Assembly: GCA_910588365.1 (NCBI GenBank) | Contig: CAJUQS010000087.1 | Coordinates: 39-64,038 of the forward strand | From: an uncultured Oscillospiraceae bacterium | Lineage (GTDB): Bacteria > Bacillota > Clostridia > Oscillospirales > Oscillospiraceae | Direction: 5' to 3' | Length of the DNA: 64,000 nt | In this document: piece after piece, positions 4,236 through 55,919 of the stretch | Position numbering within the stretch: position 1 is the first letter of the stretch | Layout: each line of letters begins with the position of its first letter | Notes under the pieces: generated by a model | Databases searched by the model: none | Seen by the model: the letters and a program-made list of their open reading frames with translations, nothing else | What the model was told of the DNA's origin: nothing | Position numbers and translations under genes: made by a program

Positions 4236-4298
4236 GCAAAACGGAGTTTTGCGCAAAAATTCTTTTTTGGTTCTTTTTTTCTTTTAAGAAAAAAGAAC
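4236..4298 (+). repeat. Family-1 bipartite hairpin repeat, copy A
   Basis: Short hairpin GCAAAACGGAGTTTTGC (4236-4252), linker GCAAAAATTCTTTTTTG, long AT hairpin GTTCTTTTTTTCTT..AAGAAAAAAGAAC (4270-4298). Abuts the aminopeptidase stop codon. Confidence 0.85.
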
Positions 4299-5684
4299 TT
4301 AGTTCATATACACAGCCTTGCAGGCCTTGTAGGTCATATAGCAGTCCAGCTTGGAGACCACCTCGAAGGGGGCGTGCATGCTCAGCACCGGCACGCCGGC
4401 GTCCAGGGTGTCAATGTTCCGCTTGGCCATGAAGCCAGCCACGGTGCCGCCGCCGCCGGCGTCGATCTTGCCCATCTCGGCCATCTGCCAGATGACGCCG
4501 TCCGCGTCAAAGATCCGGCGGGCGTAGGCCACCACCTCGGCGGAGGCGTCGGAGGCGCCGCTCTTGCCCCGGCTGCCGGTGTATTTGCACAGACCCACGC
4601 CGTAGTTGAGGCGGGAGGCGTTGTTCTTCTCAAACACGTCGGCGAAGTTGGGATCAAAGGCCGCCGTCACGTCGGTGGACAGGCAGAAGCTCTTCTCCAG
4701 GCACACCCGCACGGGCACATTCTGCACCGCGCACAGATCCTCCATAAAGGTATCAAAGGCGGCGGTCTGCATACCGGACACGCCGGTGGAGCCAACCTCC
4801 TCCTTGTCCGCCAGGATGCACACGGAGGTCTTGGCGGGGATCTGCTCCAGATCCAGCATGGCCTTCAGCGCCGCGTAGCTGCACACCCGGTCGTCGTGGC
4901 CGTAGGAGCCGATCATGCTGGCGTCCAGGCCGATGTCCGTGGCATTCGCGGCCGGCACGGCCGAGAGCTCGGCGGAGATGAAGTCGTCCTCCACAAAGCC
5001 GTACTTCTCGTAAAGCCGCTTCATGACCGCCAGCTTCACCCGGTCCTTCTCCTCGCCCTCGATGGGCTCGCTGCCCACCAGCAGGTTCAGCTGCTCGCCG
5101 GTGATGCCCTCGGCCAGGGTCTTCTTGTTCTGCTCCGCGCCCAGGTGGGGCAGCAGGTCGCTGATGACCAGCTTGGGCTCATTGCCCTCTCCGATGGTCA
5201 CGGGAACGGTCCGGCCGTCCTTGAGCGCCACCACGCCGTGGAGCTCAAGGGGGATGGTCACCCACTGGTACTTGCGTACGCCGCCGTAGTAGTGGGTCTT
5301 GAGGTAGGCCAGCTCGCTGTCCTCATAGAGAGGGGTGGGCTTCAGATCCAGACGGGGGCTGTCGATGTGGGAGGCGGTAATCTGCACACCCTCCGCCAGG
5401 CTCTTCTGGCCGATCACGGCCAGCAGCAGCATCTTCTCACGGTTATTCAGGTAGATCTTGTCCCCGGCCTTCAGCGCCATGCCGCGCACGTAGGGCTGGA
5501 AGCCCTTCGCCTGGGCCAGGCGGATGCCCTCCGCCACGCACTCACGCTCCGTCTTGCCCGCGTCCAGGTACGCCTTGTACTCCTCGCAGTAGGCGTTCAT
5601 GGCTCCACGCTCCGCGGCGGGCATCCGGTCATAGCCGTTCTTCTTCCCGGACAGGAGTGTCTCCTTCAGCTCTTTCAGTTCCAT
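4299..5684 (-). CDS. M18 family aminopeptidase
   Basis: Motifs HIDSPRLDLKP and GSYGHDDRVCSYA. ATG at 5684 is preceded by GGAGGAG with a 9-nt spacer. The frame stays open upstream into coaE. Confidence 0.85.
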   Translation of the reverse strand: MELKELKETLLSGKKNGYDRMPAAERGAMNAYCEEYKAYLDAGKTERECVAEGIRLAQAKGFQPYVRGMALKAGDKIYLNNREKMLLLAVIGQKSLAEGVQITASHIDSPRLDLKPTPLYEDSELAYLKTHYYGGVRKYQWVTIPLELHGVVALKDGRTVPVTIGEGNEPKLVISDLLPHLGAEQNKKTLAEGITGEQLNLLVGSEPIEGEEKDRVKLAVMKRLYEKYGFVEDDFISAELSAVPAANATDIGLDASMIGSYGHDDRVCSYAALKAMLDLEQIPAKTSVCILADKEEVGSTGVSGMQTAAFDTFMEDLCAVQNVPVRVCLEKSFCLSTDVTAAFDPNFADVFEKNNASRLNYGVGLCKYTGSRGKSGASDASAEVVAYARRIFDADGVIWQMAEMGKIDAGGGGTVAGFMAKRNIDTLDAGVPVLSMHAPFEVVSKLDCYMTYKACKAVYMN

Positions 5685-5702
5685 TGCGTTGTTCTCCTCC
5701 AT

Positions 5703-6290
5703 TCTATTGATTAAGAGATCCTTGAACAGATCTCCCATCTGCCTCTTAAAGACCTCGCGGTCCTCCCCCCGGTTCTCCACCAGGAGGGTGCAGTGCTCCC
5801 GGTAATAGCTCTCCGGCTTCTGGGCGGCAATCCGCGCCCGGGCCTGCTCCACGCTGAGGCCGTCCCGGGCCATGATCCGCCCCAGGCGGACCTCGCTGGC
5901 CGCCGTCACTGCTACCGTCAGATCGCACAGTTCTCCTAATCCTGATTCTACCAGATTGACCGCGTCAATAGCAAGTCCTTTTTGTGAACATTTTTGAATT
6001 TTTTGTTCCACAGCGGCGCACATCACCGGATAGACGATGGCGTTGAGCCGGTCCAGCTCCCGCCGGTCGCCGAAAACCCGCTTCGCCAGCGCCCTGCGGT
6101 CCAGATCTCCGTCTGGCAGGAACACCGCCCCGAAGGCCTCCGTCAGGGCCCGCCGCAGATCATCGTCCTCCCGCAGCCGCCGGTAGTACAGCGCGTCGCA
6201 GTCCACGATCTCGAACCCCAGCTCCGCCAGGGCGGTCAGGGCCGTCGTCTTCCCTGCCCCGGTAGGGCCGGTGATGCCGATGATGGTCAT
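5703..6290 (-). CDS. coaE: Dephospho-CoA kinase (no stop codon; reads in frame into the aminopeptidase)
   Basis: MTIIGITGPTGAGKTT P-loop and about 196 aa of CoaE-like sequence. ATG 6290 overlaps the tsaC stop (ATGA). No stop codon before 4299. Confidence 0.85.
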
Positions 6291-7339: not shown

Positions 7340-7930
7340 ATTGGGGCTTCCAGCCCCACACCCCAGGTACCTTTTCCCCCGCAGGAAAAGGTACCAAAAG
7401 TGCGCCGGGGGAGGGCCCCCGGTCCCCCGGCATCGCCCTCCGGGCGATACTCCATTCTTTGTTTAGTTGCCCTTTGCTGTAGCTGGGCTGATTCTACCGA
7501 TGGTGCTTACCCTTCGTCTGCCGGACTTCTGCGTCTACCCGCGGGTCCTAACGATAGGCGAAGCAGCGGGGGAGTGCGGCGCAAGTTTACTGCGCAGCGA
7601 TTCGGAGGATCCCCTTTGCAGGCTCTGTCCCTTTAAGAGGCCGGCAGGCGGAGTTGGTTGACCGCCAGACCACTAGATCAGAACCCCGAAGGAAACTTTC
7701 GTTCACGGGGCACCGCAATTCTTCGCTTGCAGGTGTGTCCGAAAAACCCCCGGTTATTTTGGGGGACCGGGGGATACCCCCGGCGCATTTTTGGTTGCTT
7801 TTTGTGCGTACAAAAAGTAACCGCGGGGTGTGGGGGCGCGAAGCCCCCACTTGTCTCGCGTCATTCGGCAGAGCCGAACGACCGCTCGGGCGGTGCAAGC
7901 ACCGCCTTGGACCGCGTAGGCCCCACCCGT
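7340..7930. repeat. Mosaic of family-2 GC-rich repeat modules (ORF-free)
   Basis: Hairpin GGTACCTTTTCC..GGAAAAGGTACC (7366-7395) and an inverted partner GGTTGCTTTTTGTGCGTACAAAAAGTAACC (7793-7822). Each is flanked by GGGGC..GCCCC hairpins. Module 7857-7906 recurs at 24.47-24.58 and 25.16-25.21 kb. 7695-7750 matches the reverse complement of 24335-24400. Confidence 0.8.
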
Positions 7931-7933
7931 CTT

Positions 7934-8096
7934 AGAGCCTGTTTAACATCTCCCCGCGCCCGCCTTGGCGGCATATTTTCCGCCCTGACTGCGTTAAAAA
8001 TCCTTGCAATCCGTCAGGATTGCTGCGGCTTTTTGCCTTGCAGGACATAAAATCTATCTCGCCAATCCGCACACGCTGAGATATTAAACAGGCTCT
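7934..8096. mobile_element. MITE-like element, 163 bp, with terminal inverted repeats
   Basis: AGAGCCTGTTTAACATCTC (7934-7952) is inverted relative to GAGATATTAAACAGGCTCT (8078-8096). No ORF. The same end sequence is at 63978-64000 and the internal part recurs at 60062-60160. Confidence 0.65.
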
Positions 8097-12371: not shown

Positions 12372-12472
12372 AGCCCGGGCGTGCCCCCAAGCGCCTTTTT
12401 GGGTACTTTTTGTGCGTACAAAAAGTACCAAGGCGGCACCTGTGCCACCGGGCCAGTCGTTAGGCAGAGCCC
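12372..12472 (+). repeat. Family-2 repeat, single copy
   Basis: GCGCCTTTTTG + hairpin GGTACTTTTTGTGCGTACAAAAAGTACC (12402-12429) + GC hairpin GGCGGCACCTGTGCCACC. Lies between murF and the ABC-F gene. Confidence 0.8.
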
Positions 12473-18443: not shown

Positions 18444-19247
18444 TCACTCCTTCAGCGCCTCGTGGGACTGCTCCACCAGCGCCCGTATATCAAAGCTCCG
18501 CTCAGCCGGCGGCCCCTTCTCCAGCCAGCCCAGGTACTCGATGTTCCCCTCCGGCCCGCGGACCGGGGAGAAACTCAGCTCCAGAACCGAGAACCCGCTC
18601 TCCCGGGCGTGCTCCAGAAAGCGCTCCAGCACCTCCTGGTGGACCGCCGGGTCCCGGACCACGCCCTTCTTGCCCACCTTCTCCCGGCCGGCCTCGAACT
18701 GGGGCTTCACCAGGGCGACCGCCTGGCCCCCCTCCCGCAGTACGCCGGCAATGGCCGGCAGAATCAGGCGCAGGGAGATGAAGCTCACATCCACGCTGGA
18801 GAAGTCCGGCTCCTCCGGCACCTGCTCGCGGGTCAGGCCGCGGGCGTTGGTGCGCTCCAGGCACACCACCCGCCCGTCGCTGCGCAGGCTCCAGGCCAGC
18901 TGGCCGTAGCCAACGTCTATGGCGTAGACCTTGGCGGCCCCGTTTTGCAGCATACAGTCCGTGAAGCCCCCGGTGGAGGCCCCCACGTCCATGCAGATCT
19001 TCCCCCGCAAGTCAATGGGCCAGATCTCCAGGGCCTTCTCCAGCTTGAGCCCGCCCCGGCTGACATAGCGCAGGGTGCTGCCCCGGATCTCCACCGCGGC
19101 GTCCTCCGCCACCGGCGTCCCGGGCTTGTCCGCGCGCTGTCCGTTTATAAACACCAGACCGCTCATGATGGTGGCCTGGGCCTTCTGCCGGCTCTCCTGG
19201 AGGCCACGCTCCACCAGGAGCACGTCCAATCGCATTTTCTTACTCAT
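18444..19247 (-). CDS. tlyA: TlyA family rRNA (cytidine-2'-O)-methyltransferase
   Basis: S4 domain (RLDVLLVERGL) plus FtsJ-like SAM fold (DVGASTGGFTD). ATG MSKKMRLD chosen. Confidence 0.9.
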   Translation of the reverse strand: MSKKMRLDVLLVERGLQESRQKAQATIMSGLVFINGQRADKPGTPVAEDAAVEIRGSTLRYVSRGGLKLEKALEIWPIDLRGKICMDVGASTGGFTDCMLQNGAAKVYAIDVGYGQLAWSLRSDGRVVCLERTNARGLTREQVPEEPDFSSVDVSFISLRLILPAIAGVLREGGQAVALVKPQFEAGREKVGKKGVVRDPAVHQEVLERFLEHARESGFSVLELSFSPVRGPEGNIEYLGWLEKGPPAERSFDIRALVEQSHEALKE

Positions 19248-19262
19248 AGGCACCTCGGTATA

Positions 19263-19330
19263 GGCATACATACTTTTTCTTGAAAGAAAAAGTATCAAAA
19301 AGAACTTTTAGGACAAAACGGTGTTTTGCC
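19263..19330 (-). repeat. Family-1 bipartite hairpin repeat, copy B
   Basis: GGCATAC + long hairpin ATACTTTTTCTTGAAAGAAAAAGTAT (19270-19295) + CAAAAAGAACTTTTAG + short hairpin (19312-19329). Inverted relative to copy C. Confidence 0.85.
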
Positions 19331-19958
19331 CGATATGTTTTATTTCCTCATCGAAATTCTGGTAGAAGGCGGCGATGTGCAGGCCGTCCACCAAAGCGTG
19401 GTTGCACAGGATGGACACCGGCAGCAGGACCCTGCCCCCCTGGGGGAAGTATTTCCCGAAGGTGATCCGGGGATTGCTGTCCGCCGGACTGGGCACCGGC
19501 TGGACCAGGGCCGTATAGCTGAGCCAGGGCAAGGACGAGACAAAAAATTTGTCCAGGACCTCCTCCGGGTCCTCCTTAATGCTGGCCCGGCGTTTGGCCG
19601 CCTCCTGGGCCTCCCTCCCCGCCGCCAGATAGCCGCCAAACTCCGGCTCATTCTCCAGCGTGCAGTAGCAGAAGGTCCCGTCCTCCAGCGCCACCGTATG
19701 GGAGGCCCGGCACTGGTCAAATTCGATGATGCCGCCGTCCACAATCCGCTGGCGCAGCTCCGGCACGGCGTTGGCCGAGCGGACCGCGCACCAGCATACG
19801 GCGAGGAAAAACGGCAGCCTCTCCGCCTTAACCCTGCCCAGCAGCTCCGTGATGTCAACATTGGCCGTAGTCCCCACATAGGGGTAGGCCATGGAGCTGA
19901 AATAGGCGAAGTGGTCCCGCCTCTTGTAGGATTCCATCTCAACGGTCTTGTATCCCAT
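19308..19958 (-). CDS. CatA-like (chloramphenicol acetyltransferase fold) O-acetyltransferase
   Basis: CAT-type catalytic region LCNHALVDGLHIAAFYQ. 216 aa. The last codons lie inside repeat copy B. Confidence 0.8.
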   Translation of the reverse strand: MGYKTVEMESYKRRDHFAYFSSMAYPYVGTTANVDITELLGRVKAERLPFFLAVCWCAVRSANAVPELRQRIVDGGIIEFDQCRASHTVALEDGTFCYCTLENEPEFGGYLAAGREAQEAAKRRASIKEDPEEVLDKFFVSSLPWLSYTALVQPVPSPADSNPRITFGKYFPQGGRVLLPVSILCNHALVDGLHIAAFYQNFDEEIKHIGQNTVLS

Positions 19959-19973
19959 ATTTTCCTCCCAAAA

Positions 19974-20050
19974 GCAAAGCGTAAGCTTTGCGCAAAAGGT
20001 TTTTCTTTTTGATACTTTTTCTTTGTTCACAAAGAAAAAGTATGTATGCC
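19974..20050 (+). repeat. Family-1 bipartite hairpin repeat, copy C
   Basis: Short hairpin GCAAAGCGTAAGCTTTGC (19974-19991), linker, long hairpin (20012-20043), GTATGCC. The flank CTCCCAAAAGCAAA is shared with copy D. Confidence 0.85.
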
Positions 20051-20811: not shown

Positions 20812-20840
20812 GGAATATCCCTCCTCTGTTTCGCAGCCAC

Positions 20841-21581: not shown

Positions 21582-21596
21582 CCTGCCCTCCCAAAA

Positions 21597-21655
21597 GCAA
21601 AACGAAGTTTTGCGCAAAAGTTCTTTTTGATTCTTTTTCTTTCAAGAAAAAGAAT
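21597..21655 (+). repeat. Family-1 bipartite hairpin repeat, copy D
   Basis: GCAAAACGAAGTTTTGC (21597-21613) + GCAAAAGTTCTTTTTG + ATTCTTTTTCTTTCAAGAAAAAGAAT (21630-21655). The dxs stop codon lies in the hairpin loop. Confidence 0.9.
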
Positions 21656-23471
21656 GGACAACCCCCTCCGCGTCCAGTCCCAGCAGCCGTCTCAGCTGGG
21701 GCACCGTGCCCTGGGGGGCGAAAGCATCCTTCAGATTCTTCAAAACCAGCGTTTCCGGCGCGATTCCCGCCATCGCCAGCTCCGAGGCCAGCCGCTGGCC
21801 CACGGACCCGTTCTCAAAGCAGTCCTCCAGCACCAGCAGCCGCCCGGTCCGCCGCACAGACGCCAGCACGGACGCCGCGTCCAGGGGCGCGATCCGGTGG
21901 AGCTTGACGACCTCCGCCTGCACCCCCCTCTCCGCCAGCAGATCCGCCGCCTTGAGCAGCTCGTCCGTCAGCGTCCCGTAGGACACCAGCGTGGCGTCCG
22001 CCCCCTGCCGCAGCACGGACGCGTCCTCCCCGGTCCAGGCCGGGTACTGCCGTCCCTCGCCGCCCCGGGGATACCGGATCGCCACCGGGCCCTCCATGTC
22101 CAGGGCCGCGCGCAGCATGGCCCGCAGCTCGTCAAAGCAGGCAGGGCACAGCACGCTCAGGCCCGGGATCTGGCTGAGGTACCCCACGTCCTGGCATCCG
22201 TGGTGGGTGGGCCCGTCGGAGCCCACCAGCCCCGCCCGGTCCACCGCCAGCACCACATGGAGACGCTGCAAGGCCACATCGTGTATGAGCATGTCGAACC
22301 CCCGCTGCAGGAAGCTGGAGTACACCGCCAGCACAGGGATCATCCCCTGCCTGGCCATGCCCGCCGCCATGGCCACCGCGTGGCCCTCGGCGATGCCCAC
22401 GTCAAAAAACCGCTTGGGCCAGGCGGAGGAAAACTCCTGGAGCCCCGTGCCCTCGGCCATGGCGGCGGTGACGGCGCAGATGCGCCGGTCCCGGCCCGCC
22501 AGCTCCACCAGCTCGTGGCCGAACACATAGGAAAAATCCACCTTCTGCTCGCAGACAATTCCCACCGCCGGGTCAAAGGGGCTGACACCGTGACTGCGCT
22601 CGGGCTGGCTCTCGGCGGAGGCGTAGCCCTTGCCCTTGGTGGTGCGCACATGGAGCAGTACCGGGCAGTTCAGCTCCCGGGCCCAGGCCAGGGTGGTACA
22701 CAATTGGTCCAGGTTGTGGCCGTCCACCGGCCCCAGGTAGGTGAAGCCCATGTCCTCGAACATGGAGCAGGGGTAGATGGCCCGCTTCACGTTCCGCTTG
22801 ATGCGGTGGTTGAAGTCATAGACCCGCTTCCCGCCGGGCAGGCGGTTCATCACCGCGTGGTATCCCTTCTTGAACCGGTAGTACCCCGGCCTGAGCCGCA
22901 GGCGGCTGAGGTGGGTGGCCACGCCCCCCACGTTGGGGTCGATGGACATGCCGTTGTCGTTGAGGATGACCACCAGGGGCTCTCCCGAGGCCCCCGCGTC
23001 GTTGAGCCCCTCGTAGGCCAGCCCCCCGGTGAGGGCCCCGTCGCCGATGAGGGCCGCCACGGCGTAGTCCGCCCCCGCCAGGGTCCGGGCCCGGGCCATG
23101 CCCAGGGCGACGGACACGGAGTTGGAGGCGTGGCCCGCCACGAAGGCGTCGTGGACGCTCTCCTCCGGCTTCGGAAAGCCGGAGAGCCCTCCCAGCTGAC
23201 GCAGGGAGCCAAAGAGCTCCCTGCGGCCGGTGAGGGCTTTGTGGACGTAGCACTGGTGGCCTACATCGAACACCAGCCGGTCCCGGGCGGTGTCGTAGGT
23301 GCGGTGGAGCGCCACCGTCAGCTCCACCGCACCCAGGTTGGAGGCCAGGTGCCCGCCGGTGCGGGACACGCTCTCCACCAGGAAGCGGCGCAGCTCCCCG
23401 CACAGCAGCTCCAGCTCCCCGCCGTTCAGCCGCTTCACGTCCGCCGGGGATGCGATACGTTCTAAAATCAA
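21642..23471 (-). CDS. dxs: 1-deoxy-D-xylulose-5-phosphate synthase
   Basis: TPP-binding motifs (GDGALTGG, HASNSVS region). 609 aa. TTG start 7 nt after GAGAGGTG. Confidence 0.95.
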   Translation of the reverse strand: MILERIASPADVKRLNGGELELLCGELRRFLVESVSRTGGHLASNLGAVELTVALHRTYDTARDRLVFDVGHQCYVHKALTGRRELFGSLRQLGGLSGFPKPEESVHDAFVAGHASNSVSVALGMARARTLAGADYAVAALIGDGALTGGLAYEGLNDAGASGEPLVVILNDNGMSIDPNVGGVATHLSRLRLRPGYYRFKKGYHAVMNRLPGGKRVYDFNHRIKRNVKRAIYPCSMFEDMGFTYLGPVDGHNLDQLCTTLAWARELNCPVLLHVRTTKGKGYASAESQPERSHGVSPFDPAVGIVCEQKVDFSYVFGHELVELAGRDRRICAVTAAMAEGTGLQEFSSAWPKRFFDVGIAEGHAVAMAAGMARQGMIPVLAVYSSFLQRGFDMLIHDVALQRLHVVLAVDRAGLVGSDGPTHHGCQDVGYLSQIPGLSVLCPACFDELRAMLRAALDMEGPVAIRYPRGGEGRQYPAWTGEDASVLRQGADATLVSYGTLTDELLKAADLLAERGVQAEVVKLHRIAPLDAASVLASVRRTGRLLVLEDCFENGSVGQRLASELAMAGIAPETLVLKNLKDAFAPQGTVPQLRRLLGLDAEGVVHSFS

Positions 23472-23487: not shown

Positions 23488-23546
23488 GTTCTTTTTCTTA
23501 AAAGAAAAAGAACCAAAAAGAATTCTCGGGCAAAACACTGTTTTGC
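23488..23546 (-). repeat. Family-1 bipartite hairpin repeat, copy E
   Basis: Long hairpin GTTCTTTTTCTTAAAAGAAAAAGAAC (23488-23513) + CAAAAAGAATTCTCGG + short hairpin GCAAAACACTGTTTTGC (23530-23546). Confidence 0.9.
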
Positions 23547-23557
23547 CTGTCCGTCTG

Positions 23558-24157: not shown

Positions 24158-24239
24158 GAGAGGATCTCCTCGCTTTCCAAAATCTAATTTACTTTTTTCT
24201 TCTGCCGCGCTCCGCGCGGGGGAGGTTGGTTCTAATCGG

Positions 24240-24585
24240 GGCCCCGGGTTTACGCAGCCCGGACCCGCGGTTACTTTTTGTGCAAACAAAAAGTAACCAA
24301 AAAGTTGCCAGAACCCATGGTTCTGGACTCCTTTGCTTTACGGGGGCTGTCGGACACGCTTCGCAGGTGAAGAGCTGCGGTGCCCCGTGAACGGGCCCCG
24401 TCTTTTGGCGCTCCATACCGGGCTCGGGGCGTCCATTACTGCCGCCCGGCTCGACAAGGTGACGCTTGCGTCACCCGAACGGTCGTTGGGCGGTACGCCC
24501 AATGACGTGAGCGCTTGCACCACCCGATCCGTCGTTCGGCTCTGCCGAATGACGCGAGCCGGGCGCTTGCACCACCCATGCTGTC
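24240..24585 (-). repeat. Left arm of a long inverted repeat (family-2 modules)
   Basis: Contains hairpin GGTTACTTTTTGTGCAAACAAAAAGTAACC (24269-24298). 24472-24511 is the exact reverse complement of 25164-25203. Confidence 0.85.
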
Positions 24586-25159: not shown

Positions 25160-25468
25160 CTGTCTCACGTCATTGGGCGTACCGCCCAACGACCGTTCGG
25201 GTGGTGCAAGCACCCCACCTTGTCGAGCCGGGCGGCAGCAACGGAAGCTCCGCGCCCGGTATGGAGCAAAAAGAATCTCATTCGGAGGCTGGGCAGCACT
25301 TCATCCGCACAGCAGGCCGGAGATCCCTCGCCGAGGCGGCTCGCCGGACAGCGCCTGCGCTGTCTGGCGGCCCCGAGCGGGGTCCAGGGGCGCCCCCTGG
25401 CGCGCTTTTGGTTACTTTTCCCGCGAAGGAAAAGTAACCGCGGGGCGTGGGGCTGCGTAAGCCCCACC
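25160..25468 (+). repeat. Right arm of the long inverted repeat (family-2 modules)
   Basis: Contains hairpin GGTTACTTTTCCCGCGAAGGAAAAGTAACC (25410-25439) and GGGGCTGCGTAAGCCCC. Mirrors the module order of 24240-24585. Confidence 0.85.
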
Positions 25469-25542
25469 TAATAAAATCCATATAAAATCCATCTGACATA
25501 ACGGAGGCGGCCCGAGGGCCGCCAAAAAGTTGAAAAAGAAAA

Positions 25543-26195: not shown

Positions 26196-26200
26196 GATAC

Positions 26201-36190: not shown

Positions 36191-36214
36191 ATCCCACTCC
36201 CACGAGGGGCATCC

Positions 36215-36275
36215 ATTCTTTTTTCTTGAAAGAAAAAAGAATCAAAAAAGAACTTTTACGCGAAACTCCGTTTCG
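36215..36275 (-). repeat. Family-1 bipartite hairpin repeat, copy F
   Basis: Long hairpin ATTCTTTTTTCTTGAAAGAAAAAAGAAT (36215-36242) + linker + short hairpin CGAAACTCCGTTTCG (36261-36275). Confidence 0.9.
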
Positions 36276-36330
36276 CTTGTCCCTCCGGGGTTAGAGAAAC
36301 AGAGCCGTGGACATGTTTCAGGAAATATAA

Positions 36331-36390
36331 GCCAAACGCAGTTTGGCGCAAAAAGTTTCTTTTGATTCTTTTCTTTTCAAAGAAAAGAAT
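36331..36390 (+). repeat. Family-1 bipartite hairpin repeat, copy G
   Basis: Short hairpin GCCAAACGCAGTTTGGC (36331-36347) + GCAAAAAGTTTCTTTTG + long hairpin (36365-36390). Inverted relative to copy F. Confidence 0.9.
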
Positions 36391-36396
36391 GGACAC

Positions 36397-37263
36397 CTAA
36401 ATGATTGTCCCGTTGTCATCGCTGACCGCCTTGGCCCGGCGGAAGTACTGGCACAGCAGGCCCAGGACCGCCGCCAGCAGGACGGTGAAAAAGGGGAACG
36501 ACACCGTAAAGCTGGCGGTATGCAGCACCGGGAACAGCACCATCTGCACCACGCTCTCCCCCGCGCACACCAGCACCGACGCCGCGGCCACCCAGCCGCA
36601 CCGGACTCTCACGCGCTCCGCCAGCGCCACCGTCGCCCCGGCGAAGGGGTCCGCCTCCAGGGCGGCGGCCAGCCTTCCGCCCCACCGCAGTACCGCGCAC
36701 CCCAGCAGGGAGGGCACCAGGTCCGCCGACGCCAGCAGGCACAGCGTCAGGTACGTGGGCACAAGGTCCAGCCCCGGCGCCGTGTTGGAGCTGGCTACGT
36801 TCTGCAGCTTCCCCGCCAAATCCAGCCCCTGTGCCAAAATCGCCAGAGCGCCTGCCAGCAGGGCGGCCCAGCTCAGCAGCCGCTCCACGCTCCGCCCCGA
36901 GGCGCCCCGCTCCAGTGCCCGCAGCCACCGCAGCACCGCCCAGGCCAGCAGCACCGTCCCCGTGCCGCCGGCCACCGTCAGGCCCCACAGCTTCGCCGCG
37001 GGCTCCCCCTCCAGCGGAACGCCCAGCAGGGTGGGGTTTACCAGGAAGAACAGTCCGCCGAGGATCTCTCCCCCGGCCAGTGCCAGCAGCCAGTCCCATC
37101 TGCACCTCCCCCGCCAGAGCAGGCCCAGCGCCGGTAGGGCCGCCAGCGCCAGCACAACAGCCCAGGCGGCGGCGTTCCCGCCGGGACCGGAGAGGGACAG
37201 CTCCCGCAGCCACCGGCCGAGCCGGGGCAGGGCCTCCAAAAGAACCTTTCCGCTCCCTTCCAT
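36397..37263 (-). CDS. Hypothetical polytopic membrane protein
   Basis: 288 aa, multiple Ala/Leu/Gly-rich helices. SD AAGGAGGG. No family recognised. Confidence 0.6.
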   Translation of the reverse strand: MEGSGKVLLEALPRLGRWLRELSLSGPGGNAAAWAVVLALAALPALGLLWRGRCRWDWLLALAGGEILGGLFFLVNPTLLGVPLEGEPAAKLWGLTVAGGTGTVLLAWAVLRWLRALERGASGRSVERLLSWAALLAGALAILAQGLDLAGKLQNVASSNTAPGLDLVPTYLTLCLLASADLVPSLLGCAVLRWGGRLAAALEADPFAGATVALAERVRVRCGWVAAASVLVCAGESVVQMVLFPVLHTASFTVSFPFFTVLLAAVLGLLCQYFRRAKAVSDDNGTII

Positions 37264-38414: not shown

Positions 38415-38433
38415 GCGCGAAGGAAGTGGCGGT

Positions 38434-39077: not shown

Positions 39078-39162
39078 TGCTTCTCCGCACATCAATCACC
39101 ATGCCGTCAAACTTGAATCTGGAGTACTACTACGTAATCGTAACCCCTCCCAACGTCTTGCG

Positions 39163-39990: not shown

Positions 39991-40130
39991 CCACAAAATC
40001 AAATTGCGAAACGGACTGCTGACAATTTACACTTATTTCGCAGAATAGTTACAAAAAGAGGCGGGGAAACCACATTGATCTGTGATTTCCTTGCCCCTTT
40101 TTTCTTTTTTGCTTGCCTGAAAATTAGCCG

Positions 40131-40655: not shown

Positions 40656-40681
40656 GCAGAGTTCTCCTTTCGCACTTGACA

Positions 40682-40735
40682 ACTACTATAATTTATAGTA
40701 GTATGTGTTGACTGGCAGATACTATAAAATATACT
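40682..40735. promoter_or_regulatory. PadR operator candidate and divergent promoter region
   Basis: Perfect 10+10 palindrome ACTACTATAA-T-TTATAGTAGT (40682-40702). TTGACT (40708-40713), 16-nt spacer, TATACT (40730-40735) point toward the MATE gene. Confidence 0.55.
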
Positions 40736-40775
40736 ACTTCACATGACTCTGGCTGTCAAGAGAAAGGAGCAAGTT

Positions 40776-42152
40776 ATGGACGGAAACAAAAAGATGGCGC
40801 TTTTGGGGAGCGCGCCCATTCCCAAAGCTCTCCTGGCACTGGGCATCCCAACAATGATTGGTATGCTCATTAACGCGCTCTACAACCTGGTAGATACCTA
40901 CTTTGTGGGTGGGCTGGGAACCGATCAGATGGGGGCCGTTACAGTGGCCTTCCCTCTGGGGCAGATCGTTGTAGGGCTGGGCCTGTTGTTTGGGAACGGT
41001 GCTGCCGCCTATCTGTCCAGGCTGTTAGGCCGTGGCGACAAAGACACGGCGAACAAGGTAGCGAGTACAGCCATATACAGCGGCGTTTCGATTGGGGCAA
41101 TCGTGATCTTATTCTCTATCATCTTCCTGGAACCGATTTTGAAACAGGCCGGAGCAATCGAAAGCGTTATACCCTATGCAGTCACCTACAGCCGCATCTA
41201 TATCGTGTTCTCTATTTTCAACGTGTTCAATGTCACCATGAACAACATCGTTTCCAGTGAAGGCGCGGCAAAAACGGCTATGTGTGCGCTGATGGCTGGC
41301 GCGGTACTGAATGTAATTTTAGACCCTGTTTTCATCTATGCGCTGAACCTCGGCGTAGCTGGTGCGGCGATTGCAACGGCAATTTCTCAAATCATCTCCA
41401 CATTGGTTTATTTGTGCTACATTCTTCGGAAAAAGAGCGTGTTCAATTTCAGCATCAAAGAGTGCTGTTTTGCAAAAGAAATTATGTCCGAAATTTTGAA
41501 AATTGGTATTCCTACACTGATATTTCAACTTCTGACCAGCCTTTCCATTGGCATGATAAACAGTGCGGCAAAAGAATATGGAGGCTCCGCCCTGGCCGCT
41601 ATGGGGCCGGTTACAAAAATCATGTCAATGGGGACGCTGATTGTTTTTGGTTTTCTGAAAGGATTTCAGCCTATCGCTGGATTTAGCTATGGAGCGAAAA
41701 AGTTTGACCGACTGCGGGAGGCAATTAGAATCGCTGTCCTTTGGTCTACCATTTTTTGCGTGATTTTTGGTTTTATTGCTGCCGTATTCTCTACGCAAAT
41801 AGTGTCCCTGTTCACAAAGGAAGATGCAGAGATGGTTCGTATCGGTTCGATTGCTCTACGGGGAAATGGACTTTCTTTTGTCCTCTTTGGCTTTTACACA
41901 GTGTACTCCTTCCTGTTCCTTGTGATGGGGAAAGCCGCAGAGGGCTGTGTCCTGGGCGCTTGCCGCCAGGGAATTTGCTTTGTCCCCGTCATTTTGATAC
42001 TTCCGTTGGTTTTGGGATTGAGTGGTGTTCTCTACGCACAGCCGATTGCAGATGTCATTTCGGCTATTGTCACAGCACTTATGGCGGTTCGGCTGCACAG
42101 AGAATTGCGGACAGCGGAAAATCATATTTCCACTCTACCCCAGGAACATTGA
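40776..42152 (+). CDS. MATE family efflux transporter
   Basis: LALGIPTMIGMLINALYNLVDTYFVG... 12-TM type. ATG 40776 lies 6 nt after AAGGAG. Confidence 0.9.
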   Translation: MDGNKKMALLGSAPIPKALLALGIPTMIGMLINALYNLVDTYFVGGLGTDQMGAVTVAFPLGQIVVGLGLLFGNGAAAYLSRLLGRGDKDTANKVASTAIYSGVSIGAIVILFSIIFLEPILKQAGAIESVIPYAVTYSRIYIVFSIFNVFNVTMNNIVSSEGAAKTAMCALMAGAVLNVILDPVFIYALNLGVAGAAIATAISQIISTLVYLCYILRKKSVFNFSIKECCFAKEIMSEILKIGIPTLIFQLLTSLSIGMINSAAKEYGGSALAAMGPVTKIMSMGTLIVFGFLKGFQPIAGFSYGAKKFDRLREAIRIAVLWSTIFCVIFGFIAAVFSTQIVSLFTKEDAEMVRIGSIALRGNGLSFVLFGFYTVYSFLFLVMGKAAEGCVLGACRQGICFVPVILILPLVLGLSGVLYAQPIADVISAIVTALMAVRLHRELRTAENHISTLPQEH

Positions 42153-42170
42153 TGAAGTAAGGTGGTGTGA

Positions 42171-42368
42171 ATGAACGCAACGCAAAATACTTCTCACTGG
42201 ATATGCTGTCCTGCCTGTAGCGGAAAGACCCGAATAAAAGTATACGAAGATACGGTGCTTGAAAGGTTTCCGCTATATTGCCCCAAGTGCAAGCAAGAAA
42301 TGCTAATCAGTGTCCGACAACTGAATACGTCCATCATAGAGCCAGACGCTCAGACGCAGAGCCGATAA
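42171..42368 (+). CDS. Cysteine-rich KTR zinc-ribbon protein
   Basis: CPACSGKTRIKV...FPLYCPKCKQE, two CxxC pairs. 65 aa. Confidence 0.75.
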   Translation: MNATQNTSHWICCPACSGKTRIKVYEDTVLERFPLYCPKCKQEMLISVRQLNTSIIEPDAQTQSR

Positions 42369-42434
42369 CATATGGGAACCTTCCCCATGGTTATCGGCTT
42401 TGCATTTGAAAAGTCGTGGCTATGTCTGATAAAG

Positions 42435-42471
42435 AGCGGCGGCTTTGAGAAATCAGAGCCGCCGCTTTTTT
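42435..42471 (+). terminator. Rho-independent terminator
   Basis: AGCGGCGGCT..AGCCGCCGCT stem followed by TTTTTT. Confidence 0.75.
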
Positions 42472-42737
42472 CCGTTTTGGCGGCAATTAGGAGGATGCCG
42501 CCATGCGATTGCAGATAGATAGGCACTTGTCAAAAAAAGCCTGACCCTCACAGCAGCATCCCCCACCCAAGTTTGCGAAAATAGTCGTTTTCTGACATCC
42601 CATAATGTTGTATCCAGCGCCCGAATAGCCTTGTGCTGTTCGGGCGCTTTTGATTTTCCTGCGGGCCGTTCTATCTGGTCCCGATGCCGCAGCCCGCCTC
42701 TCCTGTTCAGATTTCGTGATGTGGTACAAAATACAAC

Positions 42738-43533
42738 ATGAGCGTTTACCGGGAGGGCTCAGGTGATACAACGCTGGTCTTCCTGTCAGGCGGCGGAACC
42801 TGTTCTCCGATATTGGATTTCAAATCGCTCTATTCCCGCTTAAGCGATGAATTCAGCATTGCTGTCGTGGAAAAATTCGGATATGGCTTCAGCGATATTA
42901 TTGGCAGGAAAAGGGATATTGACTCCATCCTCGAGGATACGCGCTCCGCACTTGCGGCGGCGGGAGCAACCGCGCCGTATGTCCTCTGCCCGCACTCAAT
43001 GTCGGGGCTGGAAGCTCTGTACTGGGCAAATAAATACCCCGACGAGGTGTCCGCAATTGTTGGGCTCGATATGGCCGTTTCGGAATACTATGACAGCATG
43101 GACATCAATATCCCGCTGATGAGAGCTGCGGACTGGGCGGCAAATATCGGCGTCACCCGTCTGATTCCAGGGATTTCAGACAGCGACGCTATCAGGCACG
43201 GCACATTATCGGAGAGAGAAAAAGGATCTCTACAGAGCGGTTTTCTATCGCCGGACGGCAACTGCGAACATGATAAACGAGACCGAAGCGGTGAAAGAAA
43301 ATGCCAGGACAGTGGACAGTATGGGCGTGCCGCAGCTCCCGATGCTGCTATTCCTTTCAAACGGTTCCGGCGGAACGGGCTTCGACACGGAAGCACGGCG
43401 TGAAATTCCCATCAGTTATCTTTCCCAAGTCCACGATGGAATTTACGTGGAACTGGATCGCCCGCATTATGTTCACAATTACGAGTACGAAGCAATTTCC
43501 GAAACCATGAGAGAATTTTTGTCAAACCAGTGA
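42738..43533 (+). pseudogene. Alpha/beta hydrolase, frameshifted
   Basis: N-part frame (LVFLSGGG..., nucleophile elbow PHSMSG) ends in nonsense. The C-part continues in the +1 frame (KDLYRAVFYRRTATANMINE...PHYVHNYEY). The switch is at the A5 run 43219-43223. Confidence 0.75.
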
Positions 43534-43676
43534 CAACGTACCGGGCCGCTGGATCCCGCCTTGCAATCTCCGCCAATTTGCTGTAAAATATCTCCAAGGC
43601 GCGGCGCCTCCGCGAAATCTTCGGGAGCCCGCGCGGATACCGGAGCCGGCTTTTTTGAGAAAGAGAGGAAGCGAAC

Positions 43677-44279
43677 ATGCCCATTCAACTGAAAATCGTG
43701 TCGGATTTTGTCTGTCCCTACTGCTATGTTCTGGAGACAATGATCGACCAGCTGCGCCCCGAGCTGGATATCGCCATTGAGTACCTCCCCTTTGAGCTGA
43801 CCGAGCCGCCGAAGCCCCAGGTGGACACCTACAACGACCCGGAGCGCCGCTCGCGCTACGCCCAGGAACTGGAGCCCCTCTGCCGCCGGATTGGGCTGAA
43901 GATGTGCCTGCCGCCCAACGTAGTGCCCCGCCCCTATACCCGTCTGGCCTTTCAGGGGTTTTACACGGCCAGGGAGCAGGGCCTGGAGGAGGCCTACTGC
44001 CGCCGCGTCTTCCGCGCCTACTTTGAGGAGGAGCGGGACATCGGGGATCCGGAGGTGCTGGTATCCCTTGCCGCCGAGGCCGGAGTGGATCCCGCGGAAT
44101 TCCGCTCAGCCCTGGAGCGGGGGCAGTGGGCGGAGGAGGAGCAGGAGGCCGTCCGCCACGCGAAGCAGGATCTGGATGTACACGTAGTTCCCACGGCGTT
44201 CCTCGGAGAGCACCGCCTGGAGGGCGGCGCCCAGTCCGTCCAGGAGCTCAGAGAATGGCTGCTGGCCCACAGCGCGTAA
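43677..44279 (+). CDS. DsbA/FrnE family thiol oxidoreductase
   Basis: CPYC active site in IVSDFVCPYCY. 200 aa. Confidence 0.85.
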   Translation: MPIQLKIVSDFVCPYCYVLETMIDQLRPELDIAIEYLPFELTEPPKPQVDTYNDPERRSRYAQELEPLCRRIGLKMCLPPNVVPRPYTRLAFQGFYTAREQGLEEAYCRRVFRAYFEEERDIGDPEVLVSLAAEAGVDPAEFRSALERGQWAEEEQEAVRHAKQDLDVHVVPTAFLGEHRLEGGAQSVQELREWLLAHSA

Positions 44280-52059: not shown

Positions 52060-52100
52060 TACTTTTTCTTGAAAGAAAACGTATCAAAAGAACGTTAAAA
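52059..52100 (-). repeat. Family-1 hairpin repeat, copy H (short hairpin degenerate)
   Basis: ATACTTTTTCTTGAAAGAAAACGTAT (52059-52084) + CAAAAGAACGTT. Overlaps the last base of the permease stop codon. Confidence 0.8.
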
Positions 52101-52284
52101 TCGGGACTTAAAGCTCTGTTATCCCTGCATTCCTGCCCGGTAACGTTTTTGCGTTTTAATGGGGAATCGTATAAGGATAATCTGATTCAATCCCCGCAGG
52201 CACCTGGGGCCGCTGTCCATTTGGACAGCGGCCCCAGGTGCTTTATCTATGCCGTCAGCGGCTCTGCTCCTTTTTCTCCACTCC

Positions 52285-52449: not shown

Positions 52450-52464
52450 GATGATTCCTCCAAT

Positions 52465-52500
52465 AAAGTTCTTTTGATACTTCTCTTTCAAAAAAAGTAT
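52465..52500 (+). repeat. Family-1 hairpin repeat, copy I (partial)
   Basis: AAAGTTCTTTTG + ATACTTCTCTTTCAAAAAAAGTAT (52477-52500). Confidence 0.75.
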
Positions 52501-52507
52501 GACTGCC

Positions 52508-53035
52508 TCAGCCCCTCTGCCGCTCCAGCTCCTTGATTTTCCAGGAGCAGCGCCAGACGGCCCGCAGAACGACGGCGATGAACACGATGTAGAATCCCAC
52601 AAGGCACCGGGCCCACAGGCTGCCGGGGAAGCTGAGCAGATTGGTCCACCCGCTCACGGAGGCGCACAGCTCTATCACCAGCAGCCAGGTGAACAGGGCC
52701 CGTATCCGCCGGTACATGGCGATTTGGGAGTCTAAGTCCGTGTAGATCTCGAAGGGCCCCTCCTCCGCCCGCTTGCGGAGATAGACCCACCGGCCCCACC
52801 GCTGGATCACCTCCACCCCGGTGTCGTGCATGAACTCCACGTAGCCCTCGTAGTCGTCCGCCCGGAGTCCCGCCCCCGGCAGCAGGTCGATCTGGTAGAT
52901 GTACTCTCCCGGCTGGCAGGGGACAAAGGTAACCACCCCGACGAAAAAGCCGGCCATGGCCCAGCCCTGCTGGCAGTACTCATTGATCCAGTCCTGTTCG
53001 TCATCCTTGTCAAAGGTGAATTTCCATCGAATCAT
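52508..53035 (-). CDS. DUF2812 domain membrane protein
   Basis: FDKDDEQDWINEYCQQGWAM... plus C-terminal TM helices. ATGA overlap with the PadR gene. Confidence 0.8.
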   Translation of the reverse strand: MIRWKFTFDKDDEQDWINEYCQQGWAMAGFFVGVVTFVPCQPGEYIYQIDLLPGAGLRADDYEGYVEFMHDTGVEVIQRWGRWVYLRKRAEEGPFEIYTDLDSQIAMYRRIRALFTWLLVIELCASVSGWTNLLSFPGSLWARCLVGFYIVFIAVVLRAVWRCSWKIKELERQRG

Positions 53036-53554: not shown

Positions 53555-53694
53555 AATACGATCTCCAATCTATCAAATTTTGATATATCGTCTAACGATA
53601 TGTTTAATATATCATATCCCGATATATTTGTCAACCCTCCGGCGCCAAAAATACAGGGAGCGCAGACGCGCCCCCTGTACCAATGGATTCAGCA

Positions 53695-53760
53695 GCGGCA
53701 AAGCAGCCCTCTGCCGCAAATGTTCTTTTTGGCTCCTTCTTCCTTCAGGAAAAAGGAACG
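53695..53760 (+). repeat. Family-1-like bipartite hairpin repeat, copy J (diverged)
   Basis: GCGGCAAAGCAGCCCTCTGCCGC + AAATGTTCTTTTTG + imperfect hairpin ..CCTTCAGGAAAAAGGAAC. Abuts the potCD stop codon. Confidence 0.65.
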
Positions 53761-53762
53761 CG

Positions 53763-55763
53763 TCAGATCCCCAGCTCCACCCACAGCTGGGAGTAGAGCT
53801 TCTGTGTCTCAGGCGGCAGGTTCTCGTAGACCTCGCACCGCTCCAGCACCTCGGCCGGGGCGGCCATGATCGCATAGGTCTCCGGATCCAGCTCCTCGCC
53901 GTAGAGCTCCTCGTAGTAGGCGGGATACTGCTCCAGGGCCTCCCGGTTGGGGGAGGCGTACCAGATGAAGTCCATGTTGGCCAAGTTGGCCTCCGTGGAG
54001 GCAATGAAGTTGATCCACTGCTCCGCCTCCGCCTTGTGGGGGGCGTCCTTCAGCACGCACATGGCGTCCACAAACCAGTTGGAGCCCTCCTCCGGAATGA
54101 CAAAGGCCAAATCCTCGTTGTTCTCCGCCATGGTCAGGTAGTCCCCGGCGTAATAGGTGGCGATGGCGGCGTTGCCGCCCTCCATCTTCTGGAACACCTC
54201 GTCCATCACCTTGCCCTGGAAGACGCCCCGGCTGTTGGCGTCCCGGATGAGCTCATAGGCCGCCCGGATCTCCGCCTCGTCGGTGGTGTTCACCGAATAG
54301 CCCAGGCAGCACAGGGCCGCGCCCAGGGCGTCCCGGGAGTTGTTGATGAGCAGCACCTGACCGGCATTGGCATCGTCGTAGAGGGCGGACCAGCTGGTGA
54401 CGGGCCCGTCCACCATGGTGGTGTTGTAGATGATGCCCAGGGTGCCCCAGGTGTAGGGCACGGTATACTTATTCTCCGGGTCGTAGCTCAGATTCTTGAA
54501 CCGATCGTCAATGAGGGAGAAGTTGGGGATGTTCGAGTAGTCCAGCTCCTCCAGCATTCCCTCCTCCAGCAGCTTGGCAATCATATAGTCCGAGGGGACC
54601 ACCACGTCGTAGTCCGCGCCGCCGCTCTTGAGCAGGGAGTAGAGTGTCTCGTTGCTCTCCACGGTCTGGTAATTCACCCGGATGCCGGTCTCCTCCTCAA
54701 ACCGGGTGATGAGGTCCGTGTCGATATACTCGCCCCAGCTGCACACGTTGACCACCGGCCGGGAGCTGGTGGCGCCGGTGAGGAACACCACCGCCGCCAC
54801 GAAGCAGCAGGCCATGGCGGCCCCCGCGCCCCGCTTCACCCACCGCCAGCGGGGGGTGTCGGTGCGCACGGCCAGCTTCTCCACCCACGTCAGGGGCCGG
54901 GGCTCCCGCCGCACCGCCCGACGCTCCTGCCGGGCCTCCCGGACGTTGACAATCACCAGCAGCAGCAGCACCGTGAGAAACAGCAGGGTGGATACCGCGT
55001 TGATCTCCGGGGTGATCCGCCGCTTGGTCATGCCGTAGATGTCCATGGCCAGGGTGGAGATGGAGGATCCGGCGGTGAAGTAGGAGATGACGAAGTCGTC
55101 CACGCTCATGGTGAAGGCGATGAGGGCCCCGGAGACGATGCCGGGCTTGATCTCCGGCAGAATCACCTTCCAGAACGCCTGCATCCACGTACAGCCCAGA
55201 TCCTGGGCCGCGTCCACCAGATGCTTGTCCATCTGCCGCAGACGGGGCGCCACGTTGAGAATCACATAGGGGATGTTGAACGCGATGTGGGCCAGCAGCA
55301 GGGTGCCGAAGCCGAGGGTCAGCCGGGCGGGCAGCTCGACCGCGCTCTGCACGCTGTTGAACCACCGGGCGAAGCCCCCCCACCCCTGGAAGAAGGCCAC
55401 GAAGAACAGGCACAGGCTCACGCCCGTGACAATGTCCGCGTTCATCATGGGGATGTCGTTGACCACCAGCAGAGCGTCCCGCTTGCGCCGGCTGAGACTG
55501 TAGAGGCCGATGGCGGCGAAGGTGCCCGCGGCGGTGGAGATGGCCGTGGCCAGCAGGGATACCAGCAGCGTGATATAGAGGCTCTCCATGATCAGCCGGT
55601 TTCCAAAGAGCTCCCGGTACCAGTGGAGGCTGAAGCCCTTCCATACCGCGCTGCTGTCCCCGGCGTTGAAGGAGAAGATGATGAGCAGGATGATGGGCAG
55701 ATAGAGGAACAGGAACATCAGGCCGATGAGGAGGCGGCTGCCGCCGCGGTTTGTTTTCTTCAC
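53763..55763 (-). CDS. Spermidine/putrescine ABC transporter, fused permease (PotC) and substrate-binding (PotD) protein
   Basis: The N-terminal ~260 aa are a 6-TM PotC-like permease. After a linker TM comes a PotD-like SBP (NVCSWGEYID...VVVPSDYMIAKL...YTWGTLGIIYN). GTG start 7 nt after GGAGGAGGG. Confidence 0.85.
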   Translation of the reverse strand: MKKTNRGGSRLLIGLMFLFLYLPIILLIIFSFNAGDSSAVWKGFSLHWYRELFGNRLIMESLYITLLVSLLATAISTAAGTFAAIGLYSLSRRKRDALLVVNDIPMMNADIVTGVSLCLFFVAFFQGWGGFARWFNSVQSAVELPARLTLGFGTLLLAHIAFNIPYVILNVAPRLRQMDKHLVDAAQDLGCTWMQAFWKVILPEIKPGIVSGALIAFTMSVDDFVISYFTAGSSISTLAMDIYGMTKRRITPEINAVSTLLFLTVLLLLVIVNVREARQERRAVRREPRPLTWVEKLAVRTDTPRWRWVKRGAGAAMACCFVAAVVFLTGATSSRPVVNVCSWGEYIDTDLITRFEEETGIRVNYQTVESNETLYSLLKSGGADYDVVVPSDYMIAKLLEEGMLEELDYSNIPNFSLIDDRFKNLSYDPENKYTVPYTWGTLGIIYNTTMVDGPVTSWSALYDDANAGQVLLINNSRDALGAALCCLGYSVNTTDEAEIRAAYELIRDANSRGVFQGKVMDEVFQKMEGGNAAIATYYAGDYLTMAENNEDLAFVIPEEGSNWFVDAMCVLKDAPHKAEAEQWINFIASTEANLANMDFIWYASPNREALEQYPAYYEELYGEELDPETYAIMAAPAEVLERCEVYENLPPETQKLYSQLWVELGI

Positions 55764-55877
55764 GTCAGCACCCTCCTCCCGTCACCGCAGGAAACCGAAG
55801 GGCCTTTCTCCCGGCCGGCTCCGCATCTCCCGTCACCGTGCAGTAATCCGAGACAAAACAGGCAGAAAAGAGCGCAT

Positions 55878-55919
55878 TAAAGTTCTTTTTGCTTACTTTT
55901 TCTTTCAAGAAAAAGTAAG
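55878..55919 (+). repeat. Family-1 hairpin repeat, copy K (no short hairpin)
   Basis: AAAGTTCTTTTTG + CTTACTTTTTCTTTCAAGAAAAAGTAAG (55892-55919). Lies inside the pot operon between potB and potCD. Confidence 0.85.

Follow-up and report, generated by a model that had tools for sequence, protein, structure and literature searches.

A probable, apparently undescribed MITE family of Oscillospiraceae gut bacteria with a likely tendency to land on stop codons

The DNA analyzed here is a stretch of 64,000 nucleotides (the window) from an uncultured Oscillospiraceae bacterium, comprising positions 39 to 64,038 of contig CAJUQS010000087.1 (assembly GCA_910588365.1). The DNA looks Firmicutes-like, and its GC content is about 63%, and about 90% at third codon positions. 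Proteins identical to those of the window were found in mouse-gut metagenome contigs and in the metagenome-assembled genome (MAG) GCA_948609955.1; the nearest named relatives are Oscillibacter and other Oscillospiraceae. Our subject is a set of hairpin repeats that an earlier note had described from the letters of the window as a superfamily of bipartite hairpin repeats, with eleven AT-hairpin copies (family 1) and five copies flanked by GC-rich sequence (family 2). When the coordinates were inspected, all 16 positions carried the described repeats, and the copies proved to be intergenic and to adjoin start or stop codons, as had been claimed. We conclude, with a probability of about 0.8, that these repeats are an apparently undescribed family of MITEs (miniature inverted-repeat transposable elements) of Oscillospiraceae gut bacteria, which tends to land on stop codons.

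Family 1 copies lie at gene ends and on both strands. The copy at 4234..4298 (+) consists of a short hairpin, a linker and an AT hairpin, the last of which adjoins the TAA (4299-4301) of a CoaE/M18 peptidase gene. In the neighborhood of dxs, the copy at 23488..23550 (-) is upstream of the gene, with a TGA and the dxs ribosome-binding site directly after it; the copy at 21595..21662 (+), which has the tail GGACAAC, lies between dxs and a methyltransferase gene; a 'GTTCAC' long-loop variant with the tail GTATGCC, at 19972..20050 (+), lies between the stop of a PNP_UDP_1 gene and the ribosome-binding site of a CAT gene; and the copy at 19263..19333 (-), with the 7-nt tail GGCATAC, separates the CAT gene from tlyA. 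The dxs stop TGA (21642-21644) is in the hairpin loop of the 21595..21662 copy, and the element encodes the final 4 dxs residues, HSFS; the CAT gene runs into the short hairpin of the 19263 copy and has a linker TAA (19308-19310) as its stop; and the PNP_UDP_1 stop TAG overlaps the final tail base of the 19972..20050 copy. Further along, a tight inverted doublet is formed by 36208..36280 (-), with its AT hairpin outermost and the tail GGCATCC, and 36329..36397 (+), which has TAA on both flanks and adjoins the stop of the gene at 36397..37263. A near full-length element of a longer type, here called CANQCS-type after the genome in which the type was defined, is found at 52060..52166 (-); it covers model positions 6-114, has the termini TAC…GTA and is flanked by TTA and TCA, both of the form TNA, the TCA being the reverse-complement stop codon of a Xan_ur permease gene. 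A second CANQCS-type element at 55824..55919 (+) is without its left end (model positions 21-114) and lies 15 nt from the stop of the gene at 55935..57008. The degenerate copy at 52450..52508 (+) retains the core, the AT hairpin and a tail, GACTGCC, lacks the short hairpin, and adjoins the stop of a DUF2812 gene, and a diverged copy at 53696..53760 (+) is 3 nt from the stop of a permease/solute-binding fusion gene (53763).

A profile built from family 1 with nhmmer recovered its 11 copies at E-values of 4e-18 to 1e-6, and nothing else in the window was comparably strong. An independent, generic search for AT hairpins returned 14 hairpins, every one at coordinates noted before; it missed the copies at 52465 and 53695, which are too degenerate. 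The consensus as first written had no match in the window, even with mismatches allowed, because its loop lengths were wrong: the loops are N3-4 in the short hairpin and N2 in the long hairpin, not N4. The corrected palindrome, CTTTTTCTT-N2-AAGAAAAAG, has 7 matches at up to 2 mismatches, compared with 0 in 100 shuffles. Alignment of the 11 copies gave the core AAAG-TTCTTTTTG-[ATxCTTTTTCTT-TC-AAGAAAAAGxAT], and the unit common to the copies is AAAGTTCTTTTTG plus an AT-rich hairpin with covarying outer stem pairs. The short GCAAAAC/GTTTTGC hairpin of the proposed family 1 layout is missing from the copies at 52059, 52465, 53695 and 55878; 52059 and 55878 are the different, longer CANQCS-type subtype. 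In a terminator scan no AT hairpin passed, and none has a U-tract. The idea that the repeats are independently evolved terminators or chance low-complexity palindromes is rejected: it has nothing to commend it but their location near gene ends, none would be expected where 7-11 were observed, and the copies are not terminators and share flanking sequence, some 45-65 nt of it non-palindromic, as well as a 30-base core that is identical in at least 59 genomes.

The five family 2 copies have a single layout, in which a first hairpin with covarying arms is followed by TTTT(T)GG, an AT hairpin (G)GTwAC-TTTTT…AAAAA-GTwACC, and a GC-rich tail and hairpin. Two of them are the inverted modules (7343-7430 and 7745-7850) of a non-coding composite at 7343..7850, to which no strand is assigned and which folds as one long hairpin around a GC-rich interior of about 300 nt. 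A solo module lies at 12377..12460 (+). The module at 24226..24330 (-) contains the AT hairpin GGTTACTTTTTGTGCAAACAAAAAGTAACC, which, read from the other strand, is identical to copies in another genus-level genome. The last, at 25384..25470 (+), is just past the 3' end of a full-length OLE (ornate large extremophilic) RNA at 25536-26202 (-), which scored 413 bits against Rfam RF01071; the orientation of the module is unfit for an OLE terminator. The kinship of the two families that the earlier note had proposed is weak as a profile link (E-values of 6e-4 to 0.4), and is supported by their shared layout of hairpin, TTTT(T)GG and xTAC-TTTTT…AAAAA-GTAx and by a copy intermediate between the two families in L028.

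Family 2 also provided a presence/absence polymorphism within the species. At the 12402 site, 2 of 8 strain contigs (L001 and L003) carry a composite of about 750 bp that is a paralogue of the 7343-7850 composite (82-85% identical) and whose right end is the module found at this site in the window; in the window and five other strains the module stands alone. The composite interior at 7430-7745 contains no ORF and has no Rfam match; its paralogue lies at about 19220-19811 in L001, and in other strains the interior paralogue shows length variation resembling variable stems. This interior may be a structured RNA, or simply the inside of the element. Family 2 hairpins are shared between genera. 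In the CANQCS genome the same 30-nt family 2 hairpin as in the window occurs five times, and the family 2 modules there are the inverted ends of non-coding composites of about 640 bp that end in GC hairpins; inspection of their flanks revealed no clear duplication. What looked like a repeated 'gene start' beside family 2 in this genome was rejected, being part of the 640-bp non-coding composite.

Scans of other genomes found many further copies. The exact 30-base core, TTCTTTTTGNTNCTTTTTCTTNNAAGAAAAAGNA, is present in at least 117 stretches from at least 59 reference genomes, and among the matches listed the carriers are nearly all Oscillospiraceae, including Oscillibacter, Flavonifractor, Pseudoflavonifractor, Intestinimonas, Lawsonibacter, Pelethomonas and others. 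It was also found on six IMG/VR contigs. Two of these putative viral contigs, L130 and L134 (108-109 kb), have a GC content of 42-50%, far below that of Oscillospiraceae hosts, and they may be a vehicle by which the element spreads horizontally, or may contain host DNA that was misbinned. Two MAGs labelled as lying outside the Oscillospiraceae, L052 (2139-2185; Nitrospirae) and L115 (Christensenellaceae), also have the exact core, which could reflect contamination, mislabelling or true transfer.

Which variant predominates at the three outer pairs of the stem depends on the genome, for example ATA/TAT in CANQCS and CTT/AAG or GTT/AAC in JAAWCD, which indicates amplification within each genome. 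Despite this variation, 136 of 141 copies have complementary bases at every outer pair of the stem, in 15 pair combinations (shuffle mean 38, maximum 58); thus, hairpin formation appears to be kept by compensatory change. Orthologous family 1 copies differ between strains in loop variant. The five inverted doublets reported for the window are real, and in all of them the AT hairpins are outermost. The same arrangement prevails among adjacent copies in all genomes: it accounts for 40 pairs, any other arrangement for 13-16, and pairs less than 450 bp apart are nearly all of this kind. For inverted pairs 1-1.7 kb apart, the enclosed genes are unrelated housekeeping genes. Head-to-tail tandem arrays of AT hairpins were seen as well, in L097 (5879-6257, four copies at about 110-nt spacing), L102 (1681-2164 and 7797-7953) and L115 (2641-2767), and resemble the clusters known as bacterial interspersed mosaic elements (BIMEs).

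The extent of the transposable unit was defined in the CANQCS genome, where a discrete element of about 118 bp is found; conservation falls to zero at the base of the hairpin and extends about 90 nt on its other side. Elements of about 114-118 bp, bounded by TAC…GTA, occur in related genomes. The CANQCS element can be written TAC-TATTCTCCCATTAGAAGTAT…CGTTACCGTGCGG…GCAACGCTTTGAGAGCGAT…TTAAAGTTCTTTTTG-ATACTTTTTCTTTCAAGAAAAAGTA, and its two ends are similar hairpins (TACTATTCT…AGAAGTA and TACTTTTTCTT…AAGAAAAAGTA) that constitute a short imperfect inverted repeat. Long inverted ends are present in doublets and family 2 composites, and solo family 1 units have none. The short-hairpin family 1 copies match the CANQCS-type element only over its right 55-65 nt or so, in many of them the hairpin is followed by 7 nt more, the tail GNAYRCC, and they are treated here as variant, truncated or decayed derivatives rather than intact units. 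The bipartite hairpin is not the transposable unit: AAAGTTCTTTTTG and the AT-rich hairpin are the terminal part of an element whose other parts differ between genomes.

Full-length elements are frequently flanked by a short duplication. An identical 3-bp TNA lies outside both ends in 13 of 26 CANQCS copies; permuting the flanks 10,000 times yielded 4.2 such copies on average and at most 11, and controls in shifted register gave 0-1 matches. Five further genomes showed the same in 7 of their 16 full-length copies, for an overall frequency of 21 in 44. These matching flanks are a target-site duplication, a signature of transposition. Sharp ends, the 3-bp duplication, the strain-polymorphic composite and the empty orthologous sites described below all uphold the suggestion, made in the earlier note, that the pattern resembles a MITE system; so does the presence in 64 kb of 16 related, dispersed, small non-coding copies with defined ends.

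The other half of that suggestion fared less well. It would make the repeats REP (repetitive extragenic palindromic) elements, meaning hairpins of single-stranded DNA whose copying enzyme is a domesticated HUH tyrosine transposase (a REP-associated tyrosine transposase, RAYT, or an IS200/IS605 TnpA), with the inverted doublets being replicating REP doublets (REPINs). Such a system would accord with the maintenance of hairpins by compensatory change, the frequent inverted doublets, the short-hairpin family 1 units that have neither terminal inverted repeats nor a duplication, the conserved TTCTTTTTG 5' of the hairpin, which also duplicates one hairpin arm, and inheritance across a whole bacterial family. 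However, HUH single-strand transposition makes no target duplication, and full-length copies have one of 3 bp. The 26-32 nt AT palindrome is without a GTAG or CGTC tag, its conserved flank being TTCTTTTTG. No RAYT, Y1_Tnp or IS200-type gene was found in the window, where the only transposase is an IS256/Mutator fragment; the 736 genes around copies in 59 genomes, when clustered, comprised housekeeping families only, with no enriched transposase and no Y1_Tnp; and no Y1 transposase was seen beside more than 200 copies or in about 0.94 Mb of repeat-bearing loci, a search that did not cover whole genomes. We regard this explanation as quite improbable. REP, BIME and REPIN sequences are likewise short hairpins that lie in either orientation at the 3' ends of genes, with inverted pairs, mosaic clusters with small modules and long vertical persistence; the repeats differ from RAYT-associated REPs in their target duplication, in the missing tag, in stems that are AT-rich rather than GC-rich, and in that no RAYT was seen.

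The position of the copies relative to stop codons is strikingly precise. In 86 of the 117 matches listed from the 59 genomes, the AT-hairpin end points toward a stop codon, with a median gap of 5.5 nt, and in 59 it is within 15 nt of the stop. A reverse-complement stop (TCA, TTA or CTA) overlaps the last stem base or comes directly after it. Where the hairpin end faces a start codon, a Shine-Dalgarno sequence is found some 5-20 nt further on. In the window the AT-hairpin end touches a stop in 8 of the 11 family 1 copies, and the orientation of copies relative to transcription is not fixed. The adjacency to stop codons can be explained by the target sequence, because TGA, TAA and their complements are TNA sites and the duplication regenerates the stop; insertions would accumulate at gene ends since few other TNA sites are harmless at about 90% third-position GC.

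Comparison of orthologous loci revealed filled and empty sites. Loci with dxs orthologues 83-85% identical to that of the window were found by protein search and contig look-ups; the orthologue in L126 is 90% identical. In L127 and L128 the junctions between dxs and the next gene and between CAT and tlyA are stop/start overlaps, ATGA. The junction between PNP_UDP_1 and CAT reads TAA-GAGGGAAATTGTT-ATG in repeat-free relatives, and TAA-GAGGGAAA-ATG in L127. In the window and L126, family 1 inserts of 65-95 nt are present in exactly those junctions. L126-L129 all lack the copy that precedes dxs in the window (23488). Thus, the orthologous junctions are empty in related species. The insertions have also altered the proteins: dxs of the window ends …GVVHSFS*, with its TGA in the hairpin loop, versus …GVVEQVQEIL* in relatives, and CAT ends …IGQNTVLS*, a terminus within the short hairpin and the linker, versus …IAEAVR*. 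Downstream of prfA, three genomes have three arrangements.

The interval between dxs and tlyA (18444-23471 in the window) itself varies by species, within a conserved dxs-tlyA-nadK-argR-recN cluster. It contains a methyltransferase, PNP_UDP_1 and CAT in the window; GNAT, DUF402, GNAT, PNP_UDP_1 and CAT in L127; CAT only in L128; and DUF402, GNAT, PNP_UDP_1 and NUDIX in L129. The possibility that CAT is the cassette of a composite transposon bracketed by family 1 copies was considered and rejected. The gene belongs to the same operon in repeat-free relatives, and is therefore an old operon member and not borne by the repeats.

A different proposal is that the repeats are host signals kept at gene ends because they are useful, whether as mRNA-stabilizing or processing hairpins, translation-decoupling spacers, protein-binding palindromes or, for family 2, intrinsic terminators. 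The precise placement at stop codons would suit such a role, as would a core that is nearly invariant across genera while neighboring genes are 66-85% identical, and predicted hairpins that are stable, most orientations having z-scores between -2.6 and -4.8. In 4 of the 5 family 2 copies of the window, moreover, the first hairpin and its T-run pass the terminator consensus. Against this, both orientations relative to transcription occur, and the AT hairpins, as noted, fail as terminators. The elements at 4236 and 53695 each have, beyond them, a canonical GC-rich terminator (4150-4178 and 53654-53682, respectively) and a TTGACA-17-TAxxxT promoter, at 4236 that of the next gene, which places these copies in the 3' untranslated region (UTR) as neither terminator nor promoter. 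A promoter function was rejected for the elements, which have no sigma-70-like hexamers inside and canonical promoters outside. Furthermore, close relatives do without the elements at the same junctions, insertions have removed the native C-termini of dxs and CAT, and the duplications, genome-specific variants and modular partners indicate transposition. Host signals are thus an unlikely account of the family as a whole, and some copies may have been co-opted secondarily.

We searched for known relatives of the element at several levels. In Rfam 15 the window matched only OLE RNA, and the repeats were unmatched even at E <=5, save for a chance-level match at 24226-24300. Plasmid and phage collections contained no match to the element. 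No paper in the searchable literature was found to give the sequence or to connect MITEs with these taxa, in agreement with the earlier note, which had not recognized a described family.

The nearest known counterparts are other MITEs. PIF/Harbinger-Tourist elements share the TNA target preference. So does the IS1031 group of the IS5 family, for which a 3-bp TNA preference is documented (PMC1676026), and the same 3-bp TNA duplication is found here. Like the IS1031-group MITEs of bacteria and the Tourist/PIF-Harbinger elements of eukaryotes, the family has non-coding units of about 115 bp, a 3-bp TNA duplication, and many copies per genome, mostly outside coding sequence. Unlike these, it yielded no parent insertion sequence (IS) and no DDE transposase whose ends match its own, and its internal modules are swapped between genomes; its AT-rich palindromic hairpin termini, TAC…GTA, contrast with the GAG/GGC-type inverted repeats of IS5. 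MITEs in general are shorter than 200 bp, A+T-rich, with TA at their termini, a target-site duplication and stem-loops, and may be co-translated with upstream genes (PMC2229807). The Correia/NEMIS elements of Neisseria, RUP of S. pneumoniae, ERIC and YPAL of Yersinia resemble the present family in being under 200 bp and A+T-rich with TA termini, a target-site duplication and a stem-loop transcript, and in being intergenic, often downstream of genes and at times co-translated with the upstream gene (PMC2229807). They differ from it in that its hosts are GC-rich Oscillospiraceae, in that there is no sequence similarity, in its duplication of TNA rather than TA, and in the precision of its insertion at stop codons.

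Taken together, these results point to the following scheme. The terminal module would be the recognition site of a transposase supplied in trans, presumably a cut-and-paste DDE enzyme with a TNA preference such as that of the IS1031 group of IS5 or of PIF/Harbinger. The rest of the element is modular: a short AU hairpin in family 1 of the window, a module of about 75 nt in the CANQCS type, and GC-rich hairpins in family 2. In a genome of 63% GC the tolerated TNA sites would be mostly TGA and TAA stops and their reverse complements, and with the stop regenerated by the duplication an insertion would be nearly neutral, allowing accumulation at gene ends. Most copies in the window are probably old, fixed in the species and partly decayed, with solo ends and no clean duplication, and hairpin pairing is probably kept by compensatory change.

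Several observations weigh against the MITE interpretation. Short-hairpin family 1 units, tailed doublets and family 2 composites had no consistent duplication when their flanks were checked, nor do they and the solo family 1 units show consistent terminal inverted repeats; for these the case for mobility is made by homology of the terminal module and by empty sites in other species. Within the species, no empty site for family 1 was found in 8 + 8 strain contigs, where the examined sites are all fixed. Neither IS5-type inverted repeats nor a DDE_Tnp_1-type partner was found, and the termini, which begin TAC and are palindromic hairpins, are unlike typical IS5-family inverted repeats. No autonomous IS or transposase with matching ends was found in the window, beside more than 200 copies or in the plasmid and phage collections, a survey that did not extend to whole genomes. 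Finally, the core hardly varies from genus to genus, which would not usually be expected of neutral selfish DNA; such constancy would be compatible with a host function or with frequent horizontal transfer. We keep in mind an alternative, itself unlikely enough to be an outside chance, in which the nearly constant module is more than a remnant of an IS5-like element: it would be the substrate of an unrecognized transposition system that reads the hairpin end and targets TNA or stops, or else many copies would have been co-opted across Oscillospiraceae as 'operon punctuation', uncoupling genes that once overlapped and defining the 3' ends or the stability of mRNAs.

The window contains other mobile or repeated sequences. 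A separate MITE at 7932-8096, directly after the prfA stop, has TTA on both flanks and terminal inverted repeats of about 19 bp, (A)GAGCCTGTTTAAYATCTC…GAGATATTAAACAGGCTC(T); with its GAGCCTGTTTAA-type inverted repeats and TTA duplication it looks IS5/IS1031-like, in contrast to the hairpin family, and pieces 88-90% identical to it are present in other Oscillospiraceae (L071 2935-3034 and L112 1-101). A small GC-rich hairpin module (…CGTCGTTCGGCTCTGCCGAATGACGCGAG…) is also repeated: besides a 67-bp copy at 24504-24570, which strain L006 lacks, related pieces lie at 7855-7900 and 25157-25211, making this another independently varying mini-repeat. A low-GC island at 38000-44000 (46-54%, versus about 63%) encodes VanZ, the IS256/Mutator transposase fragment (39096-39965), PadR, a MatE efflux pump and a hydrolase, and was probably acquired horizontally.

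Oscillospiraceae are abundant gut bacteria known mainly from MAGs. At a density of about one repeat per 4 kb in the window, the elements affect assembly and binning, and contigs break at them. Gene calling is affected too, both by false ORF extensions and recurrent pseudo-peptides and because the C-termini of essential genes such as dxs really are altered. By separating genes that overlap in relatives, the elements bear on operon structure, and individual copies can be used as strain-typing markers. The identity of the transposase would tell an unusual IS5-like enzyme from something new. A MITE is a known kind of selfish DNA and not a new biological system; the superfamily is nevertheless real and abundant, and the explanation of its stop-codon placement, together with its visible effects on gene ends, makes it moderately interesting. 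It is a clear example of how a TNA preference and a target-site duplication make stop codons safe landing sites in GC-rich genomes.

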